Source of the DNA: an uncultured Acidimicrobiia bacterium
GTDB lineage: Bacteria > Acidobacteriota > Terriglobia > Versatilivoradales > Versatilivoraceae
Reading direction: 5' to 3'
Length of the DNA stretch: 64,000 nucleotides
Assembly (NCBI GenBank): GCA_963786955.1
Contig: CAWBAT010000003.1
Coordinates: 128,001-192,000 of the forward strand
The notes under the pieces are model-generated. The model had not been told where the DNA came from and did not search any database. It was given only the letters and a program-made list of their open reading frames with translations. Below are positions 535-43,148 of this stretch, in pieces. A program made the translations under genes and the position numbers. Positions within the stretch are counted from its first letter, which is position 1; every line of letters starts with the position of its first letter.

Positions 535-1359
535 ATGCCTTCCCCCATCCTGGTTGGAGCCGTCGTTTACGATCCCAAAGTGGTCGTGATCTGGGAGATC
601 ATCAAGGATTTCTTTAAGTCCGAGGGCTGTCCCATGGATTCGGTTTTTTATTCGAACTATGAACTGCAAGTCGATGCTTTACTCGCCGGCCATATCCACA
701 TCGCTTGGAACTCGCCACTAGCCTGGGTGGACGCGCAACGGCGCAATTCCGGGAACTGCCGGGCCATTGCTATGCGCGACACCGATCGCGATCGCATCAC
801 CCATTGGGTTGTGCGGCAGCAAAGCGGCATTCAGCGGGTGGAAGACTTGCGCGGAAAGACGGTCGCGACGGGTGCCAAAGATTCCCCTCAGGCAACTTTG
901 CTTCCTTTGCATCATTTAGCCACGGCGGGACTGAAACCTTATAAAAATGTTCAAGTAAGACGCTTTGACATGATGGTGGGGAAACACGGAGATCATGTTG
1001 GAGGCGAATTAGAGGCCTTGCGCTGCCTCCAAAGTGGTGACTGCGACGCTTGTGCTATCCTGGACCTGAACTGGCAGACGTGGCAGGCGGATGGGACGGC
1101 GAATCCCGAAACGCTCGTGTCCCTGGCGACGACAGAACCCTTCGACCACTGCAATTTCACTGTCAAAGACAGCTTTCCAGTCGAACGGGAAGCACATTGG
1201 ATCGAGGCGCTGTTCCGAATGAGCTACAACAATCCTGATCATCGCATGATGATGGATATGGAGGGGCTTAAGGCATGGTTGCCAGGGCGTACGAGTGGCT
1301 ATCGTGCTTTGACTGAGGCAGTGGCTCAACAACATTTTTTTGAAGATCTCGAGAAGTGA
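535..1359 (+). CDS. PhnD/SsuA-like substrate-binding-fold protein without signal peptide
   Basis: AAGGAG RBS; PhnD-like segments (NYELQVDALLAGHIHIAWNSP, DLRGKTVATGAKDS); no hydrophobic N-terminal signal. Confidence 0.8.
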   Translation: MPSPILVGAVVYDPKVVVIWEIIKDFFKSEGCPMDSVFYSNYELQVDALLAGHIHIAWNSPLAWVDAQRRNSGNCRAIAMRDTDRDRITHWVVRQQSGIQRVEDLRGKTVATGAKDSPQATLLPLHHLATAGLKPYKNVQVRRFDMMVGKHGDHVGGELEALRCLQSGDCDACAILDLNWQTWQADGTANPETLVSLATTEPFDHCNFTVKDSFPVEREAHWIEALFRMSYNNPDHRMMMDMEGLKAWLPGRTSGYRALTEAVAQQHFFEDLEK

Positions 1360-2564
1360 TTTCCCCACCGACTCCACCCAAAATAAATCTGACCAAACCG
1401 CTGCCTCTCTTCCCCGTGACCACTGTCGGTAGCTGGCCGCGTTCTCTTGAAGTTCTTCGCGCTCAACGGCGGAAACAACGCGGTTTGATTTCCGAGGCCG
1501 ACTTTGAACGGATCGCCACTGCCGCGATTCTTGAAGTACTGCGCCTGCAAGAAGAGGCTGGCGTCGACTTGGTAACCGACGGGGAACAGCGGCGTGACAG
1601 TTTTTATTCATTTGTGGCTGAAAAGTTGAACGGTGTGCGGCTGACCTCGCTGGCTGAAATGCTGGATTGGGTAGAAGACAAGGCCGGGTTTGAGCGTATC
1701 CTTCAAACACTAGATGTCCCCGCCTTCGCCATCAACAATCCGACGTGCACAGGACGCCTCGAACGACGGCTCCCTCTTGCTGTGAATGAGTTTCGGTTTT
1801 TGCGTCAACATACAGACCGCTTCATTAAGATTCCGCTTCCGGGCCCCTACCTGCTGACAAGGGCGATGTGGGTTAAAGAGGTGACTCGCCCCATTTACCC
1901 TACCAAAGAAGACCTTGCCGAAGACGTTGTGCGTCTCTTACGCGCGGAAGTCTGCGAGTTGCGCGACGCAGGTGCGGATTTCATTCAATTGGACGAACCG
2001 GTATTGACGGAATTGGTCTTTACCCAGGGGCAGACCCGAACGTTTATGTGCGCAGCCTTGGCGGCGCGGAAGGATCCGGCGGAGGAATTGGAATTTGCCG
2101 TCGATCTGATCAATCGAGTGGTTGAAGGATTGTCGGATGTGCGAATCGGTCTGCACATTTGCCGGGGGAATTGGAGTCAGCAGGAGGCCATTTTACTGAA
2201 AGGGTCTTATCATCCGCTGACTTCGTATCTTTCCCGGTTAAAGGTGAAGCAACTGGTTCTGGAATTTGCGACACCCCGGGCCGGTGAGCTCGCGGCTCTG
2301 CTAAGTTCGAAGGAAATTGCAGAAAATAAGGAGCTGGGGCTAGGTGTGACAAATCCCCGGTCCCTAGAAATCGAGTCCGTTGCAGCCATCGTTTCTCGTG
2401 TTGAAGAGGCGCTCAATTATCTGCCTGCCGAACGAATCTTCCTGAATCCTGATTGTGGTTTTGGCACCTTCTCTTCACGTCCAGTCAGTAATGTCGAAAT
2501 TGCTACCCGAAAGCTGGAGGTGATGGTAAAAGCTGCGACCATCTTGCGTGAGCGTTATGGTTAG
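1356..2564 (+). CDS. Cobalamin-independent methionine synthase II (MetE C-terminal-like) family Zn enzyme
   Basis: TTVGSWPR, DLVTDGEQRR, IQLDEP, Zn ligands HIC (HICRGN) and NPDCGF; GTGA overlap with upstream stop. Confidence 0.88.
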   Translation: MISPPTPPKINLTKPLPLFPVTTVGSWPRSLEVLRAQRRKQRGLISEADFERIATAAILEVLRLQEEAGVDLVTDGEQRRDSFYSFVAEKLNGVRLTSLAEMLDWVEDKAGFERILQTLDVPAFAINNPTCTGRLERRLPLAVNEFRFLRQHTDRFIKIPLPGPYLLTRAMWVKEVTRPIYPTKEDLAEDVVRLLRAEVCELRDAGADFIQLDEPVLTELVFTQGQTRTFMCAALAARKDPAEELEFAVDLINRVVEGLSDVRIGLHICRGNWSQQEAILLKGSYHPLTSYLSRLKVKQLVLEFATPRAGELAALLSSKEIAENKELGLGVTNPRSLEIESVAAIVSRVEEALNYLPAERIFLNPDCGFGTFSSRPVSNVEIATRKLEVMVKAATILRERYG

Positions 2565-2782
2565 GGGAATTGTGTTTCAGCTATCTTCAATGATTACAAT
2601 CGATTGCCTCTACTACCGTTTCGAGAATAGAAATCAGATCATGAGCTGAAGTTCATCCTGGAGAGCGATTTAAAATAAATCCGAAGCAGCAGTTTCAAAA
2701 AAAGTGAGACTCAGAGTTTCTTTTGGCGGTAAAATACAATCATAGGAATTGAGTTGATCAATTTCTCTTCCAGGGGGAAGCT

Positions 2783-3334
2783 GTGAAACCAGCGCTAACG
2801 CTTTTTCTGCTCATGGGCATGCTTTTTGTTGGTCGTATGGAGGGTCAGGGGCGCGGGAATTTCGGGGCAGGCAGATCCCAACAGGGCGGACACCACGGGC
2901 ATGCTGGCTTCGGGGAGGGGCGTGGGCATTCTGGCTCCAATATTCGACCTTATGCGATTGGCGGCTTGAATGTCGGGTCTTCCTACCGGGGGGCTTACTC
3001 CCGCCACCGCCTTTATAGTCCGGGTTTCTTTTCCCCATTTTACTGGGGTGATGGTTACTCAGAGCCCTTCATCGACGCCGAACTTCTCCTGCCCGAGTCT
3101 CTAAATGGCGAAAAACTCTATTACCGAAGAGCACCTGCTCCGGATGTGGAACCGAACTGCAAGGATGCCTGGTCGGGAAATCCCCCGACCAATTCGGTGA
3201 GTCATACCATGAACCGGATATTTGAAATGCAGTGTGAGAACAGACATCCGAGCCCAGATACGGAGCTAAGACATCCGACTAGCGCCCCTTCCGGGACGTC
3301 GAACCCCTCGACAACGCCTGCTACAAGAGACTAA
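2783..3334 (+). CDS. Hypothetical secreted Gly-rich protein
   Basis: GGGGAAG RBS, hydrophobic N-terminal signal-like peptide, Gly-rich then Tyr/Pro-rich segment. Confidence 0.55.
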   Translation: MKPALTLFLLMGMLFVGRMEGQGRGNFGAGRSQQGGHHGHAGFGEGRGHSGSNIRPYAIGGLNVGSSYRGAYSRHRLYSPGFFSPFYWGDGYSEPFIDAELLLPESLNGEKLYYRRAPAPDVEPNCKDAWSGNPPTNSVSHTMNRIFEMQCENRHPSPDTELRHPTSAPSGTSNPSTTPATRD

Positions 3335-3403
3335 TTCGACTTCTTTGAGTTCTTTCCGATCGTCCTCGCAGGAGATCGACCCTTCTGGAGAGCAGCGGTA
3401 AAT

Positions 3404-34673: not shown

Positions 34674-36638
34674 GTGATGAAAATCCTTTTCAATTCCTCC
34701 CGAACACCTCGTCGGCTATTCCAAATAATTCTTATCTTGCTCTTCCTGTGTTTGGCCTGGACGGCTTTGCCGCTGACGGCCCAGCAGGCTTCCCAGCCCA
34801 AGGATCAAGCTCAAGATCGGAAAGAGAGTTTTGGCGGTTCATTCAAGACTCTCAACCCCGAACAACAAAAACTGGTGGTTAATCTGGTTCAGGCCTACGG
34901 CCGCGCGGCGAAAACTCAAGTGGATCCTGAAAGGGTCTATGACGCGAGTCGTCAATCTGTCAGAAGCACATTCGATGCGGTAACACATGCCCTGTGGAAC
35001 ACGAAGTTGACCAGCTCAGATGGGAAATCGTTGGGTACCGCGCTTGATTTGATCGATGCTGTGGAAGATATTGCAGGGGAAGTCCCCGAGGCCCGAGGCG
35101 ATCGACAATTCCGCATCTATGTCCATTTGAAGCCGAATGCCATTGAGACGCTTGGCGCCAGCCGGGAATTCAAGCGAGAGGGAGACAATACGCACTATCA
35201 CTTCGGTTTCCCCATTTGCTTCCGGATGAAGGGTGGGCCACCCTCTATTCAGTGTTCCATTTCGCGAGATGGCAAGCGAGGCGATTTTGACGTGGATTAC
35301 CGCTCTTCTTCATTTCCGTCGGCTGCATTCAACGGGCATCTGAGTGCAGCGAACTCCGATGTGCGAGCGGGTGACAATCTGGACCGGCACGACGGGCGCT
35401 GGTCTGGGCTCACCGGTTGGTGGCAAGGCCTTTTTAGCCTGCCTCTTCAATCCTCTTCAACTTCCGATCCCACTCTAGGCTCATCCAGGATTCCTCCCAA
35501 CCCTCGTATTTCTGAAAAAGAAGGTCTGGACGCGGCCGTCAATGATTTTCTTACTTCTTGGATCATTGAGCAGCAGCCCAATCTTACCGTCGCTTATTTC
35601 TCCCCCCGCAGCTTCTCATGCCTCGAAGAAATGGCCAGTAAGAGAGGGAAGCCTTTTGAGCCTGGAATAGTGAAAGCGCAGCTGATGGTGCGTTTGGCTG
35701 CCTTCAATAAAAAAGTAGGGAAACCCGCTAAAGTTGAAGACGTCCTTGAGAACGTCAAGCCATGGAATCCTCGGCTCAAACCGGTGAAGAATCGGTATGA
35801 GTCAGAGTTCCTCTTATTCGCCGTACCGAACGATATTGCGGCTGCCGTAGATTGTGCGGAACAGAACGCGGTTGAGCCTACACCGGCAAAGAAGAAGGCC
35901 TCCAAGGACTATGGGGATTATTTCGGCTCGGCGTTCCGCCTCAAGGCTGGGGACAGTAAGGGCACTACCGTCTATTTCCTCTGGAGCAAGGAAGGCAATT
36001 ACTGGAAGATCGTTGCATTGAAGACAGCGGATGAAGCCGATCCCAAAATGGTCGCTACAGCAGCAAGTACCGCCGCTCCAAAAGTTCCTACCACGCCACG
36101 GGTGAATGGCGATCCAAAGTTAATCCAAGCAGTGCAACAATTCCTCTCCGCGTGGTTCGTAAAGCAAGAGTATGAAACGGCTCTCTCGTTCTTGTCTCCG
36201 AAATCTTACGTTTGCTTGGATTTCTCAGAAGACCCGGCCAAAAAGGGACTCGCCCCGGAACAGGCCCGCAAAGCAATCACCGACGGATTAGAGAAGGCAG
36301 AACAAGCCATCGGCAAGAAAGCGAATCTGGATGATGCCATCAAAGCCGTCCCGGCACAGCACGAGCTCATTAAGATTGTTACCCATAAAGACGAGAACGT
36401 CTATTCCTTGATCAGCCTTCCGGACGGAATGGCCGAGGATCGCATGTGCAGTAATGCCGATCGAGGAAAGGGGAAGGAGTCGGAACTCGATGATCCCCGC
36501 AATAAGATCTATGGTCACTACTTTGTCAGTTCCTTCGAGCTTAAAATAAGCGGTGGTGAGCCAGCCTCACTCCATTGCATGTGGGGACTGGAAGATGGGA
36601 GCTGGAAGATTCTTGCCTGGAAGGTGGCCAGCGACTAG
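34674..36638 (+). CDS. Secreted hypothetical protein with an internally duplicated domain
   Basis: GGAGG RBS, signal peptide; AVNDFLTSW..FSPRSFSCL..WKIVA repeated as AVQQFLSAW..LSPKSYVCL..WKILA. Confidence 0.75.
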   Translation: MMKILFNSSRTPRRLFQIILILLFLCLAWTALPLTAQQASQPKDQAQDRKESFGGSFKTLNPEQQKLVVNLVQAYGRAAKTQVDPERVYDASRQSVRSTFDAVTHALWNTKLTSSDGKSLGTALDLIDAVEDIAGEVPEARGDRQFRIYVHLKPNAIETLGASREFKREGDNTHYHFGFPICFRMKGGPPSIQCSISRDGKRGDFDVDYRSSSFPSAAFNGHLSAANSDVRAGDNLDRHDGRWSGLTGWWQGLFSLPLQSSSTSDPTLGSSRIPPNPRISEKEGLDAAVNDFLTSWIIEQQPNLTVAYFSPRSFSCLEEMASKRGKPFEPGIVKAQLMVRLAAFNKKVGKPAKVEDVLENVKPWNPRLKPVKNRYESEFLLFAVPNDIAAAVDCAEQNAVEPTPAKKKASKDYGDYFGSAFRLKAGDSKGTTVYFLWSKEGNYWKIVALKTADEADPKMVATAASTAAPKVPTTPRVNGDPKLIQAVQQFLSAWFVKQEYETALSFLSPKSYVCLDFSEDPAKKGLAPEQARKAITDGLEKAEQAIGKKANLDDAIKAVPAQHELIKIVTHKDENVYSLISLPDGMAEDRMCSNADRGKGKESELDDPRNKIYGHYFVSSFELKISGGEPASLHCMWGLEDGSWKILAWKVASD

Positions 36639-36955: not shown

Positions 36956-37606
36956 TTAAAAGGGTTTGGCAATTTTCTTTACGCCCTTCTCAGTTGCTTT
37001 GCCTGCGTCTTTGGCTCCTTCTCCAACTGCTTCTCCTGTTTTTGCAGCCCCTTTGGCCGTACCTTTGGCTGCCGCCTTCGTCCCATCAGCCGTCGCGTCA
37101 GCGGCTTTCACGGTGCCTTTAGCCGTTGCATCCGCTGCGCCCTTTGCGCCTTTGGCTGTACCTTTGGCTGCCACTTTCGTGCCGTCAGCCGTCGCGTCGG
37201 CGGCTTTCACTGTACCCTTGGCAGTCGCATCGCCAGCTTTGGTAACTCCTTTGGCCGTACCTTTGGCTGCCGCTTTCGTGCCGTCAGCCGTCGCATCGGC
37301 GGCTTTCACTGTACCCTTGGCAGTCGCATCGCCAGCCTTGGTAACTCCTTTGGCCGTACCTTTGGCTGCCGCTTTCGTGCCGTCAGCCGTCGCATCGGCG
37401 GCTTTCACTGTGCCCTTGGCAGTTGCATCCGCGGCCTTGGTAACTCCTTTAGCCGTACCTTTGGCTGCCGCCTTCGTACCATCAGCCGTTGCGTCGGCCG
37501 CCTTTTCTGTGTCTTTCGCAGCCTGGCTGCTGCACAGGGCAGACGTACAGATGCCCGCTAAAAGCAGGACGGCCAGACCCAAAGCCATTTGAAGGTTCTT
37601 CTTCAT
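36956..37606 (-). CDS. Secreted Ala/Lys/Thr-rich repeat protein (LEA-like 11-mer repeats)
   Basis: GAGGAG RBS, signal peptide; 33-aa unit KAADATADGTKAAAKGTAKGVTKAGDATAKGTV; 99-bp DNA period (e.g. 37254 and 37353). Confidence 0.8.
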   Translation of the reverse strand: MKKNLQMALGLAVLLLAGICTSALCSSQAAKDTEKAADATADGTKAAAKGTAKGVTKAADATAKGTVKAADATADGTKAAAKGTAKGVTKAGDATAKGTVKAADATADGTKAAAKGTAKGVTKAGDATAKGTVKAADATADGTKVAAKGTAKGAKGAADATAKGTVKAADATADGTKAAAKGTAKGAAKTGEAVGEGAKDAGKATEKGVKKIAKPF

Positions 37607-37938: not shown

Positions 37939-39381
37939 TTATGCCAGGATATCTTTGACGACTTCACCGTGCACATCGGTGAGACGATAGTCCCGACCCT
38001 GGAAACGGTAGGTGAGTTTGGTGTGATCAAAGCCCAGCAAGTACATGATAGTGGCGTGCAAATCATGGACGTGAACTTTATCTTTCACCACATTAAACCC
38101 GAGCTCGTCACTTTCGCCCAAAGTAAAGCCGGCCTTGACCCCGCCTCCTGCGAGCCACATGGTAAACGCGTTGGGGTGGTGGTCGCGTCCATCACTACCA
38201 CCCTGGACCATGGGGGTGCGGCCAAATTCGCCGCCCCAAATCACCAATGTATCGTCTAGCATGCCGCGCTGTTTGAGATCTTTAATCAAGGCAGCGCAAG
38301 CTTTGTCGGTATCGAGACAATTCTGCTTGATATCGCGGACTAAGTTCCCGTGCTGGTCCCAAGCTTCATGATAGAGCTGGACAATCCGCACGCCCCGCTC
38401 TACCAAACGCCTGGCGAGGAGGCAATTGTTAGCGAATGAGGGCTTGCCTAATTCAGCCCCGTACATTTCAAGGACCTGTTTAGGTTCCTTGGAAAGATCC
38501 ATGAGTTCCGGTGCGCTGCTCTGCATGCGAAACGCCATCTCAAAAGAATTAATGCGCGTGGCAATTTCAGGGTCCCCGCTAATTCCCAAATGCATTTGAT
38601 TGAGTCGGCGAATGGAGTCTAGCGAATCCCGCTGCAGTTCTTGATCAACACCCCGAGGATTGGAAAGGTAAAGCACCGGGTCGCCGCTCCCGCGGAACTG
38701 GACTCCTTGATAAACGGTGGGGAGAAAACCACTCCCCCAGCAGGAGTTCCCGCCACTGGGACCCTTTTTCCCGGAGCTGAAAACGACGAAGGCCGGCAGA
38801 TCCTGGGATTCGCTACCTAAACCATAAGTGACCCAGGCTCCCATGCTTGGTCTTCCAAACTGGGGTGTTCCCGTATTCATCATCAACTGCCCGGGAGCAT
38901 GGTTAAAGGCATCTGTAACCAGGGACTTCACAATCGTCAGTTCATCGACAACTCCTGCGGTATGAGGCAGTATTTCCGATACGTCGGCCCCCGACTTGCC
39001 ATACTTTGCAAACTTAAATTTAGGGCCTAGTAATTTGGAATTAGGGTTGATGAATGCCGAGCGGTATTCCTTGAGTAATTCGGGAGGAGGGAGTGTCCCA
39101 TCAAATTTTTCCAATTGAGGCTTGTAATCAAATAGTTCCATATGGCTCGGTCCGCCAGCCATAAAGAGGTAAATGATGTTCTTTGCTTTTGGAGAATGAT
39201 GCGGCTTTCTGGGTGCAAGCGGGTTGGGTGGAGCCGGATTCTCGCCGGCGGCAAAGCCGGCACTATTGAGGAGCTGGCCGAGAGCCAGAGTGCCTAAACC
39301 GACACGGCATTGCTCAAAAAACCAACGGCGTGTCACCAGCTGAGGAGGAAGATGTCGATTAAGATTATCCTGACAATTCAT
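37939..39381 (-). CDS. DUF1501 family protein
   Basis: TRRWFF twin-arginine-like leader, [45 protein letters not shown]. Confidence 0.92.
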
Positions 39382-39409
39382 TTAATTACTCCGTATTCTA
39401 GTCTCGATG

Positions 39410-39451
39410 GTTAATAGTCCGTAGTTTAAGGTTCAAGGATCAAGGTTTAAA
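39410..39451 (+). repeat. Degenerate heptamer tandem array (GTTYAAG) downstream of the four-helix-bundle gene
   Basis: gttaata gtccgta gtttaag gttcaag gatcaag gtttaaa. Confidence 0.75.
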
Positions 39452-39454
39452 CCA

Positions 39455-39884
39455 TTAGGTTCCATGCCTTGCAGGTGGCGCTTGGATTTCAGAAGGCTTG
39501 TATTTTGAACCACGCAGATCAGAATGTCTAAGGTACCCCATTAATCCTGAAATCATTCTGCTGACTCTTTTCGTTTGCTCAATGAGGTCATCAAAATCAG
39601 TCTGCTTCATGTAACCTCTGTCAGATGCCAAATAAAGCTGGGCACGGAGTTCCCCCGCGGACCCTTTTGCCTGCGAAAGAAATCTGCAGGAACTCCCGAT
39701 TTCCCCCTCTTTCAAACCCTTCAGCAATGTTTGAAAGAATCGATACAGCAGCGCGACGAATTTGATTACGAAGTTCAAAGTCTCTAGAAAATGGGTGAAG
39801 TTCGGATAAATCGTAAATCAAGTTAGCAAGAACACGAGCCTCTTTCCAAGCATCCATATCCTCAAAGGTTGTGATCCTCGCCAT
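39455..39884 (-). CDS. Four helix bundle protein (23S rRNA IVS-protein-like), frameshift near 39683
   Basis: FEDMDAWKEA, QIRRAAVSILSNIAEGFERG..EF, then FLSQAKGSAGELRAQLYLA in the second frame. Confidence 0.88.
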
Positions 39885-39915
39885 ACATTCAATTTCTAAG
39901 AATAATTCTAAGCAA

Positions 39916-39971
39916 TTCGAACCTTGAACCTTGAACCTTAAACCTTTGACTTTCGACCTTAGACTTTTGAC
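39916..39971 (-). repeat. Eight-unit heptamer tandem array upstream of the four-helix-bundle gene, inverted relative to the 39410 array
   Basis: Plus strand ttcgaac cttgaac cttgaac cttaaac ctttgac tttcgac cttagac ttttgac. Confidence 0.85.
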
Positions 39972-39973
39972 AG

Positions 39974-42900
39974 TCACTCTTTTGTTATCGTTTCATCCAA
40001 ATTGAGAAGCACCCTTGAAACCGTCATCCAGGCAGCCAGTTGGACAGGGGTTGCTCCCTTTGGAAGCGCAGGGAGTTGTCCGTCATGGATTCCCGCCAAG
40101 TCCCATGGACTGATCCATCCATCTATCAGGCGTTGCTTTTGTTTGTTCAGTAGACCCAGCAATTCAGCCGACTCTTGTTCCGTTGGGGTTCTGGACAGAC
40201 AGCGTCGAAAAGCGTAGGTCAACCGGTTCTCGTCCGTTTCCCCGCCTTCTTGAAGCGTCCGCAAAGCTAGAGCCTGGGCAGTTTCGACAAAGAGCGGCTC
40301 ATTCAACATTGTTAATGCCTGCAGGGGTGTGTTGGATCGAGAACGCCGAACGCAAGACATGTCACCATTGGGCGTATCAAATACCTGCAACATCGGGTAG
40401 GGAACAGAACGGAACCGGAAGGTATAGAGTGCCCGGCGATAGCGGTCTTCGCCTTTGGCCTCATACCAGTTCTTCGGACCATAGCTGGCCGGAGGGACAA
40501 ACAAAAATTCCGGGGCTGGCGGATAGACACTCGGTCCTCCAATCTTGGGATTTAGCAGGCCGCTTGCCGACAACGCGATATCCCGCACAATCTCTCCGTC
40601 GACTCGAAATCGAGGGCCCCTGGCCAGCAGACGGTTATAGGGATCCCGAGCATAGAGTTCCGGTGTGACCTTAGAAGATTGCCGGTACGTTGCTGAAGTC
40701 ACTATCAGCCGGTGCAACTTCTTCATGCTCCAGCCGCGGTCCATGAATTCGACGGCCAACCAATCCAACAACTCCGGATGAGACGGCGGGTCGCATTGTC
40801 TTCCAAGGTCTTCGGCGGTACTGACGATTCCAGTACCAAAGTAGGACTGCCAGGTCCGGTTGACGATGGCACGCGCTGTGGTTGGAGCTTGACGATCCAC
40901 GATCCATTTTGCAAAAGTCAGGCGGGTGGGTGGTGCATTAGGCGGCAGGGGATTCAGGAAAGCGGGCACACCCTCAGTCACCACTTTAGCCGGTTTCAGA
41001 AAATCGCCCCGGGTCAGAATATGGGTCTCGCGTGGTTCTGTGCGAGCCTGGAGCACCAATTGTGACGAGCTTTCAGGATGCTCCCGCCACATTCCCTCAA
41101 TTTTTGTATTGGCTTCCTGCCAATCCGGGATAGTGGTTCGCCAGTAACTGAATACGGCCTGAACCTGGGCGGGGCTCCTTTGATCCTTAGGAATAGCCAG
41201 GATGTCTCGAACATTCTGAGGCACCGGATCCGCCGTAGGATTCGGTGCGGTGGTGATGGAGAGACGAAAACGGCCTAGATTGTGAGTTGTATTGTCGTCG
41301 CTATTCCATCCGCCGTGATTTTCCGTCAAAAATATTCTCAGTACATTTCCCTGCGGATTTGAAATGGGCTGTTCTGCCTGGAAGACCGCTTTTCGCGGGA
41401 GGTTGCGGCGAACCGGGCCCACATCAATCCCCCAGGCGGTCTCGTCTTTGCCGTCAATGGCAAATGTGACGGGTCCGGTCACGCGCCCGCGGTCTGTTTT
41501 ATCGTAGAAAATCGGTTCCAGTGGAGTCTCCGGCGGGTTCACGTCAGCCGTCGCCTTGACCATTTTTACTTTTGTGAATTTGTCAGGAGTTTCTTCCGCT
41601 GCGGCTTCGACTTCGAACTCGGTCAGAGCCCCGGTCCCTTTAGTCGAACGACCGGGCCCTCCTAACGGAAGGTTTGGATCGTTCATCAGTTCCAGACGGA
41701 AACCGGTAATATTCTCAACATCCGTCTTGACGGTCAACTTTACGCGATGTTTTCCGGGAGCGTAGCCTCTGGCACAGGAAGGAACCATCTTTCATGGGCA
41801 GGTACTTCTGCCCTCCGGCAGTATCCGCTTCCACGCTCGGGAGGATAACAATCCACTCCGGTAGATCGTGGCTGCCTTTTTCTTCCCATTGAGCCATCCG
41901 TTCCTGCCAACCTGGATTGCGATGCTGGAGTTCTGCTTCCACTTCACCGATCTTCCGGTAAATTTCTGCCCGCTTCATTTGCTGATCTGGTGTGTAGACC
42001 GCCACGTTTGCTTCATATGAATTATTCAGAAAGGCAAAAATCTGGTAATACTCTTCCTGCTTCAGCGGGTCATATTTATGGTTATGGCACTGGGCACATT
42101 GAATCGTGATGCCCAGGATGCTCTTCCCGACTGCATCCATGCGATCGAACATGGCTTCCATGCGAAACTGCTCCGGATCAATGCCACCCTCCTCATTAAT
42201 CATGGAATTCCGCAAGAATCCGGTGGCCACGATCTGATCTTGGGTCGGATTGGGGAGCTGATCTCCGGCCAGTTGATCGATAATAAATTGATTGTAAGGC
42301 AAATCCCGGTTCAAGGATTTAATCACCCAATCCCGATAAAACCAGACCCAGCGCTGTTTGTCTTTTTCATAGCCATCAGAGTCTGCGTAACGCGCCGCAT
42401 CCAGCCAACTGCGTCCCCAACGTTCTCCATAGTGAGGTGAGCCTAAGAGTCTGTCGACTTGTTTCTCATAGGCATCCTTGCTTGTGTCCTTGAGAAAGGC
42501 ATCGATTTCTTCAAGAGTGGGAGGGAGTCCCACTAGGTCGAGGCTCAGCCGCCTCAGAAGTGTCACTCGATCCGCTTCCGGTGAGGGTTTCAGCCCTTCC
42601 TTCTCGAGGCGTGCCAAGACAAAGAAGTCGATGGGGTTTAAAGGCCATTTGGAATCCTGAACCGTTGGCAAAGGCGGAAGGACTGGAGGGATGAAAGCCC
42701 AGTGCTTTTTGACTTCTGCTCCAGCAACTCCCACTCCTTCCGGCCAGTCGGAACCCTGGTCGATCCAGGCCTTGATGAGAGCGATCTGGGCGGCAGGTAG
42801 AGCTTCGCCGCCCATGGGCATCCTGGGCTGGTCTCCGAGGCCGGCGACCCGCTGATACAGGTGGCTATCAGACGAATTGCCAGGAACAATGCTTTTCCCC

Positions 42901-43148
42901 CCCAAGGCGAGCTGACGGGAATCAAGCCGAAGTCCTCCCATCTGCATTTTTTCGCCATGGCAGCTGTAACAAGACTTCTCAAAAATGGGCTGAATGTCTT
43001 TGACGAAGTCAACTTTAGCCGGAGTGGCTGCTGCCGGGGTTCCTTGAGCCCAGATTATTGCCACCCAACCCACCAGGGCAGCGAAAAATAAGGCAAATCT
43101 AGGTGCAGCCATTTTCCTGTATCTCGCTGATTTTATCTTCCCACTCAT
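39974..43148 (-). CDS. Planctomycete cytochrome c / DUF1549 / DUF1553 protein (frameshift near 41765)
   Basis: CYSCHG..GGLRLD, HWAF, NPIDFFV, WLDAARYADSDG, CAQCHNHKYDP; PSHPELLDWLA, SNTPLQAL, VLLNLDE. Confidence 0.9.

Follow-up and report, generated by a model that had tools for sequence, protein, structure and literature searches.

The locus described here raises the question of what a small four-helix-bundle gene, enclosed by two arrays of heptamers in inverted orientation, is doing between a DUF1553 gene and a DUF1501 gene. It lies in a 64,000-nucleotide stretch of DNA (the window) on contig C3 of the genome under study, G000, and every gene of the region is encoded on the minus strand. 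The upstream host gene encodes a planctomycete-type PSCyt1 / PSCyt2 (DUF1549) / PSD1 (DUF1553) protein. In the congeners G002 and G001 the gene is undivided (an ORF of 1057-1059 aa), but in this assembly it is divided between two frames that overlap by 74 nt, an N-terminal part with the PSCyt1 cytochrome c and PSCyt2/DUF1549 domains (41715..43148, from the ORF list and family profiles) and a C-terminal part with PSD1/DUF1553 (39974..41788; PF07587, 329.8 bits), whose stop codon TGA is at 39976-39974. The "DUF1553 gene" of the first-pass annotation is the C-terminal part of a longer, split gene. The downstream host gene is a DUF1501 gene of 480 aa (37939..39381; 544.9 bits). Between the two lies an insert of 592 nt (39382..39973), where relatives have only 6-36 nt from the DUF1553 stop to the DUF1501 start. 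The insert has a GC content of 42.2%, compared with 52.3% for DUF1501 and 54.5% for DUF1553, and the PF05635 (23S_rRNA_IVP / S23p) four-helix-bundle gene is the only ORF in it with a family match in the ORF list and family profile search. The description of the insert as AT-richer than its flanks and devoid of a transposase was thus accurate.

The 5′ arm (39916..39971) consists of eight tandem heptamers on the sense strand, running from 39971 to 39916 as GTCAAAA GTCTAAG GTCGAAA GTCAAAG GTTTAAG GTTCAAG GTTCAAG GTTCGAA and starting two bases past the TGA, exactly the units that had been listed as following the DUF1553 stop. A 29-nt spacer separates this array from the ATG of the PF05635 gene (39455..39886; ATG at 39886), which is broken by one extra base and ends with TAA at 39457-39455. 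The 3′ arm, an inverted heptamer array of 3.4 units (39447-39424), begins 7 nt further on, and the DUF1501 start codon (39381) follows 42 nt past its end. On the plus strand the 3′ array reads GTTTAAGGTTCAAGGATCAAGGTT and its upstream counterpart GTTTAAGGTTCAAGGTTCAAGGTT, with one mismatch between them, so that the core arms are complementary at 23 of 24 positions, as the earlier reading of a reverse-complement array with a single mismatch had it; the partners of the 3′ arm are the inner four, GTT-type heptamers of the 5′ arm. A repeat search extended the arms to 39404-39447 and 39920-39963 (44 nt, 77% complementarity, with a 28-nt core at 82%). Tandem Repeats Finder assigned period 7 to 39424-39447 and 39919-39946, and over 39942-39971 it gave a period of 14, equal to two heptamers. 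The ungapped inverted score of the arms is 21; among 1500 intervals of like geometry placed at random in the same genome, just 4 scored 14 or more. The PF05635 gene set in inverted heptamer arrays between DUF1553 and DUF1501 is thereby confirmed as a real, non-random cassette.

The first-pass annotation was right in calling the gene a four-helix-bundle gene, although it missed a frameshift of one base at about 39684. PF05635 gives two profile matches of 67.7 and 45.7 bits against a curated cut-off of 33.8, and they fall in different frames, one (39621-39884) covering profile positions 1-60 and the other (39455-39778) positions 55-106. Alignment with three orthologues, two from congeners (G001, G002) and one from a metagenome locus (L121), places the extra base of G000 in alignment column 203 (39683..39685). 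No uninterrupted frame crosses the PF05635 domain in G000. The ORF is intact in G002 and L121, and that of G001 has a frame break in its tail. The intact G002 orthologue matches PDB 2GSC with an E-value of 9e-15, and the four-helix-bundle protein of the 2GSC type is a homopentamer according to PMC4990558. The extra base may be a sequencing or assembly error. An assembly with indel errors is suggested by the split PSCyt gene, by the 4 of 22 DUF1501 paralogues of G000 that are in pieces, and by a second of the eight PF05635 loci of the genome that is also split. It may also be that the copy in G000 is dead. Four sequencing runs contain part of the locus (as assembled contigs), the best with 0.36 of the sampled words; in the frameshift region their depth was nil over 39505-39678 and 2.5, in one run, over 39679-39852.

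The first-pass annotation had proposed a discrete insertion between normally adjacent partners and suggested that orthologous loci be compared for empty sites. Such sites exist. All three genomes of the genus (G000, G001, G002) carry a heptamer-armed cassette at the DUF1553-DUF1501 site, and the site is empty, with the two genes 6-36 nt apart, in four other genera, three of the same family (G004, G005, G009) and one of the same class (G019); DUF1553/DUF1501 pairs are multi-copy in the genomes compared, so orthology here rests on best adjacent matches. Metagenomes gave a concordant picture. Of 80 loci gathered by the DUF1501 protein at 72-87% identity, 68 were searched with a profile over at most 1500 nt of upstream DNA, and two of these, L121 and L147, proved to have the four-helix-bundle gene, both with inverted arms of the GTCCAAG type. 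Where 700 nt or more of upstream sequence was available (52 loci), the gap between the host genes was 18 nt or less in 36, 46-194 nt in 10, and 416-1585 nt in 6. Two of these six are the cassettes, and the remaining larger inserts (416, 628, 1524 and 1585 nt) are unrelated sequence. The ten loci with spacers of 46-194 nt contained no heptamer hairpin or landing pad of the GTCCAAG type. The spacer of locus L160 carries a direct array of CCACTCA-type heptamers and, separately, a hairpin that is not made of heptamers.

These comparisons show that the cassette entered the short DUF1553-DUF1501 spacer in an ancestor of the genus. We saw no target-site duplication when filled and empty sites were compared by eye, the sites being only about 70% identical. 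The history of the site may include more than one event, since the L147 four-helix-bundle protein is 55-59% identical to the orthologues at this site and 64% identical to a paralogue elsewhere in G000, a hint of replacement or of a second insertion; the DUF1501 proteins of L147 and L121 are 80% and 84% identical, respectively. A further junction came from an RNA library, in which a 400-nt contig skips 590 nt of the window, passing from 39381 to 39972 through 54 letters of different sequence. This contig departs from the window sequence at 7 of 70 positions in one matched part and at 18 of 254 in the other (about 92-93% identity), and it is therefore most simply explained as coming from a relative that lacks the cassette and not as processed RNA. 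Assembled contigs of this kind cannot show RNA ends.

The G000 arms are GGTTCAAGG and CCTTGAACC, and those of G001, G002 and L121 are GGTCCAAGG and CCTTGGACC. The paired units are GTTCAAG/CTTGAAC in G000 and GTCCAAG/CTTGGAC in the other three, so that the same unit position differs (GTC to GTT) in several copies of both arms. The two arms have thus stayed complementary through a joint change between species. The suggestion that the arrays pair and loop out the ORF also agrees with structure prediction for the sense RNA of the cassette, where the arrays are paired and the ORF lies in the loop in both the minimum free energy and the centroid structure (-178.2 kcal/mol, z -3.66), and none of 100 shuffled sequences folds as well. 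However, an RNA stem under selection is expected to favour G:U mismatches, and no such preference is seen. Fifty-nine clear stems from across the family, each in its best register, contain 1621 Watson-Crick pairs, 60 G:U, 57 A:C and 99 other mismatches (G:U vs A:C, p 0.85), and stem by stem G:U exceeds A:C in 18 loci, A:C exceeds G:U in 16 and the two are equal in 25. Without a G:U excess on the sense strand, complementarity is shown but RNA pairing is not demonstrated. An RNA signal could be masked by fast turnover of the arrays through slippage and conversion. Comparing duplex energies was of no help on this point, since the advantage of sense over antisense arms (52 of 78 loci) was equally present in shifted control intervals (45:30, 42:29, 41:36 and 50:22), which makes the comparison uninformative.

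The question then becomes whether this packaging is peculiar to one locus. The first-pass annotation had advised a survey of all four-helix-bundle genes of the genome for inverted 7-mer arrays, and such arms were found at seven of eight. All eight PF05635 loci of G000 have period-7 tracts on both sides, with a unit that differs at most loci; the inverted score is at least 14 at the seven and 10 at the eighth. Other cassettes occupy unrelated operons, for example HupE/UreJ operons, or lie beside an ORF with an FtsK-gamma domain. The six intact copies of G000 are 17-51% identical in protein sequence to the G002 orthologue at our site, and the only similar PF05635 pair in the genome sits in duplicated HupE/UreJ operons. 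Comparison of the eight loci revealed no near-identical cassette copies that would attest recent mobility. An insertion sequence or MITE can be set aside, there being no transposase, no near-identical copies among the eight loci and no target duplication visible between sites that are only about 70% identical.

Across phyla we took the best 80 of 526 matches to one subfamily, of which 79 were usable; many are from Pyrinomonadaceae and the loci are non-independent. In this sample of the best 80 of 526, the inverted score was at least 12 at 55 of 79 loci, compared with 8 of 296 shifted control intervals, and at least 15 at 46 of 79, compared with 2 of 296. The period is specific as well, the best-window signal of the same best 80 of 526 being 0.62/0.59 for period 7 and 0.37-0.45 for periods 5, 6, 8 and 9. 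At the 59 loci with a clear stem the median stem is 28 nt long and the median cassette 516 nt, and the median distance from stem to ORF is 21 nt on the start-codon side and 13 nt on the stop-codon side. Packaging in inverted arrays is typical of the whole PF05635 family. With crude ORF calling, a larger ORF beside the cassette was on the cassette's strand upstream in 68 of 74 cases and downstream in 53 of 60, and where the two neighbours were co-directional the cassette was sense in 46 cases and antisense in none (again with crude ORF calling). Such a sense-only orientation suits an element living on the transcripts of its host. Polarity is also seen in the arms themselves. At 50 of the 59 loci the 5′-arm consensus unit includes GT without AC, at 2 AC without GT, at 2 both and at 5 neither, and a count of dinucleotides in the 5′-arm units gives 250 GT and 39 AC. 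Part of this polarity reflects descent, because the cassette is inherited whole; the GTY core has persisted even though the remaining positions have diverged to give 33 consensus units.

Heptamer arrays are, in addition, far more numerous in G000 than the genes they flank. The genome contains 182 merged period-7 arrays of at least 21 nt, of which 14 are within 300 nt of a four-helix-bundle gene and 168 are away from one. The latter lie between ordinary genes, for instance in HupE/UreJ operons, in a polysaccharide gene cluster and beside PIN genes. An inverted partner within 300 nt was present for 29 of the 168 and for none in a reversed-flank control; these gene-less inverted pairs have 14-150 nt between their arms. 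The unit families that flank the PF05635 genes are also the large dispersed families of the genome. Among 61 genomes of the class, at least two hits to three consecutive GTYNAAR units were found in 15 of the 41 with PF05635 and in none of the 20 without it, and at least 19 hits in 8 of the 9 genomes with at least nine PF05635 matches. The number of PF05635 matches correlates with the number of these hits (Spearman rho 0.51) over 61 genomes that are related and non-independent, and for one unit family; some gene-rich genomes (G007, G013, G048) have no such hit. These counts show that genomes with PF05635 genes are where dispersed arrays of this heptamer type are mostly found.

The closest known thing to the cassette is the ORF-bearing intervening sequence (IVS) of 23S rRNA, as in Coxiella burnetii and Leptospira; it was in rRNA intervening sequences that the PF05635 family first came to light. 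According to PMC4990558, the C. burnetii IVS is 428 nt long, lies in helix 45 of the 23S rRNA, and is closed by a stem of 28-bp terminal inverted repeats that is cut by RNase III; upstream of its S23p ORF there are two or three tandem heptamers and one degenerate copy, their number varying among strains, its GC content is below that of the genome, and the ORF is apparently decaying. The resemblance is extensive. Both elements hold an S23p/PF05635 ORF in a loop closed by inverted repeats, with a stem of 28 bp in Coxiella and a median of 28 nt over our 59 loci. Both have tandem heptamers in variable number upstream of the ORF, between it and the stem, and both are a few hundred nucleotides long, of lower GC than the host, patchy among relatives and prone to decay of the ORF. 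The differences are that the G000 cassette stands between two protein-coding genes and not in a helix of 23S or 16S rRNA, that its array of eight units is longer and its arms are unequal in length, and that RNase III cutting is established for the rRNA IVS but only presumed for the cassette. The comparison with an mRNA intervening sequence made in the first-pass annotation is accordingly a fair analogy, the cassette and the rRNA IVS having the same build, but excision, circles and any bringing together or rejoining of the cistrons on either side find no support; in the rRNA case RNase III cuts the fragments.

The explanation that we favour, with moderate confidence, is that the locus is one copy of a widespread compact cassette with the same build as the ORF-bearing IVS of 23S rRNA, acting through read-through transcription, an RNA stem and RNase III cutting. 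The cassette would have no promoter of its own and would be transcribed by read-through from the host operon. A promoter scan returned three promoter-like sites, compared with 1.0 expected, none of them meaningfully placed on the sense strand, and a terminator scan found no cassette-specific terminator. In the transcript the arms may pair as a stem of 24-44 bp of double-stranded RNA that closes a loop of about 470 nt, and RNase III, a gene for which is present in G000, would cut this stem as it does in rRNA intervening sequences. Such a cut would release the mRNA of the four-helix-bundle gene and part the DUF1553 message from that of DUF1501. The protein, a relative of the nucleic-acid-binding pentamer Avd, probably acts on its own and on the dispersed heptamer arrays and not on the host operon.

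A DNA-level element is a possible but less convincing account of the same observations. The arms would then act as single-strand hairpins or as homologous tracts, any RNA stem would be a by-product, and the cassette would spread or be exchanged by homologous recombination between arrays of like unit, with gene-less arrays and hairpins as landing pads. The strand symmetry of the mismatches, with 60 G:U and 57 A:C, is what such an element would show, and gene conversion would give just the joint change of arms seen between species. The 168 further arrays of the same unit families, including the gene-less inverted pairs, would supply the substrates, the closer similarity of the L147 protein to a G000 paralogue (64%) than to the orthologues at the site (55-59%) hints at a replacement or a second insertion, and neither a transposase nor a target-site duplication is visible. 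What this account does not lead one to expect is the 46-to-0 sense orientation, because recombination between symmetric inverted arrays would also invert the loop. Moreover, a loop of about 470 nt would make extrusion of a cruciform from duplex DNA unlikely, and the ten metagenome loci with spacers of 46-194 nt have no GTCCAAG-type hairpin or landing pad. Coincidence, in which the heptamer arrays are generic intergenic repeats and the small gene merely happens to lie between two of them, might draw on the same abundance, given that only 14 of the 182 arrays of G000 are within 300 nt of a four-helix-bundle gene. This reading is very improbable and is already contradicted by inverted arms at seven of eight family genes as against 4 of 1500 random intervals, by the 55 of 79 loci in other phyla as against 8 of 296 controls (best 80 of 526), and by arms that in the orthologues stay complementary while the unit changes.

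It is rather unlikely, in our judgement, that the cassette has become a domesticated regulator, kept by the host in order that the stem, with or without the protein, sets the ratio or the stability of the DUF1553 and DUF1501 messages. That three species and L121 retain the cassette at the site, and that its ORF is unbroken in G002 and L121, is compatible with such a role, as are the constant sense orientation of the cassette to the operon and the way in which the arms hug the ORF (median distances of 21 nt to the start codon and 13 nt from the stop codon). However, most relatives (36 of 52) have the two genes at most 18 nt apart and without the cassette, the same cassette is found in the unrelated HupE/UreJ operons and beside the FtsK-gamma-domain ORF, and the frame is broken in G000 and in the tail of G001. 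A last candidate is the accessory gene avd of a diversity-generating retroelement (DGR). PF05635 resembles Avd, the DGR accessory protein (PDB 4DWL), according to PMC10053308, and the two belong to a related four-helix-bundle fold family; the PF05635 representative 2GSC is matched by the G002 orthologue (E 9e-15). The cassette gene, unlike Avd, stands alone within its repeat arms, with no reverse transcriptase, template or variable repeat nearby, and the RVT_1 matches in G000 are confined to contigs C5 (465-4564) and C4 (876181-876744), with none on C3, the contig of the window. That the gene is a DGR accessory gene is hence scarcely credible.

Returning to the cassette as an IVS-like element on host transcripts, a more speculative extension, to which we give little credence, is that the four-helix-bundle protein is a trans-acting partner of the heptamer arrays and that the cassette is the "mother" of the dispersed arrays. 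The pentamer would read the GTY core of the 5′ arm on single-stranded RNA or DNA, in an arrangement like that of RAYT and REP but without a nuclease or transposase fold. REP sequences and RAYT genes (REPINs) consist of a gene flanked by an inverted short repeat that is also scattered in intergenic DNA, the REP being a palindrome of 20-40 nt and RAYT an HUH/Y1 transposase. The cassette is similar in having an inverted short repeat around a gene, dispersed copies, and a repeat abundance that follows the presence of the gene; it differs in that PF05635 is its only family match, with no HUH/Y1 transposase, and in that its repeats are tandem heptamers with a unit of their own for each cassette. Tandem 7-nt repeats between genes are also familiar from cyanobacteria, where they are called STRR. 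Direct repeats of the intergenic heptamer TAACTGA, for which there is no explanation, are described from Beggiatoaceae, cyanobacteria and Bacteroidetes in another paper (PMC4679880). These repeats and STRR resemble the cassette arrays as intergenic tandem 7-nt repeats that are patchy over phyla and have no known function, but the cassette arrays, unlike the TAACTGA repeats, form inverted pairs around one gene family. A term search of the text of PMC4679880 gave no mention of an IVS or of four-helix-bundle genes. Our literature search, made in full texts with subscription journals largely outside its scope, likewise returned no paper that links PF05635 to heptamer arrays outside rRNA. Within that scope, a packaging known from rRNA has hardly been described outside ribosomal RNA.

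To our knowledge no function has been assigned to PF05635, a very large family, and we know of no explanation for the tandem heptamer repeats that have been seen between bacterial genes for decades. Set against the cassettes described here, the intervening sequence of rRNA would appear to be a special landing site for a cassette of general occurrence, most copies of which lie within protein-coding operons. Should RNase III indeed cut the stems, many operons in many phyla would contain a processing site of their own that annotations overlook. Were the protein to act on the arrays, it would represent a new kind of system for spreading repeats, and the trans-acting reading, if true, would assign a role at once to a very large "unknown" protein family and to heptamer repeats that have long lacked an explanation. 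At the locus itself, DUF1501 would keep, after such a separation of the messages, the purine-rich GGAG that lies a few bases before its ATG. This purine-rich stretch could be its ribosome-binding site, and by eye, in an unscored comparison, GGAG or GGGGA is seen upstream of the DUF1501 ATG in G000, G001, G002 and G004, with or without the insert.

Four-helix-bundle cassettes are also present in two paralogous HupE/UreJ operons on other contigs of the same genome, G000 (G000:C5:10673-12449 and G000:C4:381224-382996), where each sits between the two HupE-type genes of its operon. In these copies the small gene has heptamer hairpins both before and after it, and an additional heptamer array lies upstream of the first gene of each operon. 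About 7 kb from the C5 cassette, the beginning of that contig (G000:C5:465-4564) carries a cluster of three reverse-transcriptase-like matches, one of which contains stop codons.

The DUF1553-DUF1501 site itself varies in what it holds. A metagenome relative, L147, has a cassette at this site (L147:763-1306), and the encoded protein is 64% identical to a G000 paralogue from another locus, as against 55-59% to the site orthologues, that is, the four-helix-bundle proteins encoded between DUF1553 and DUF1501 in related genomes. L147 may represent a second insertion or a swapped cassette. In the cassette-free site from the nearest other genus (L015, genome G004), the spacer between the DUF1553 stop and the DUF1501 start includes GGTAAAAGTCAAAGG, two heptamer-like units of the cassette-arm type; these could be what remains of a cassette since lost, or a seed that was there beforehand. 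In a further metagenome relative the intergenic site is occupied by a 195-nt insert (L160:2306-2501) that contains a direct heptamer array, with four copies of CCACTCA and two of CTCCTCA, and a hairpin separate from the array, and the DUF1501 start codon follows only a few bases past the end of the array.

Heptamer arrays are found away from the cassette as well. At G000:C4:772380-774648 (L024:1380-3648) a 137-151 nt unit composed of GTCAAAG-type heptamers is directly repeated about ten times, with copies on either side of a PIN-domain gene that is preceded by a small ORF. In sequencing runs X1, X2, X3 and X19, contig depth summed to 750-3400 in the bin at window 39853-40026, which contains the upstream heptamer array, and stayed below 15 in the adjoining bins. 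Arrays built from units of this type evidently abound in these sediment metagenomes.

In G000 the PSCyt1-DUF1549-DUF1553 gene is spread over two frames (ORFs 41715-43148 and 39974-41788, overlapping at window 41715-41788), but two congeners carry it as one ORF of 1057-1059 aa; 4 of the 22 DUF1501 paralogues in G000 are fragmented. The G000 assembly probably contains indel errors.

Elsewhere in the window, ORF 34674-36638 (654 aa) has no Pfam match, nor does any Pfam family match either of two open frames on opposite strands, 36956-37606 (minus) and 36966-37592 (plus). Both frames contain a 99-nt tandem repeat (window 37050-37498; 4.5 copies, 89% matches, TRF score 646).
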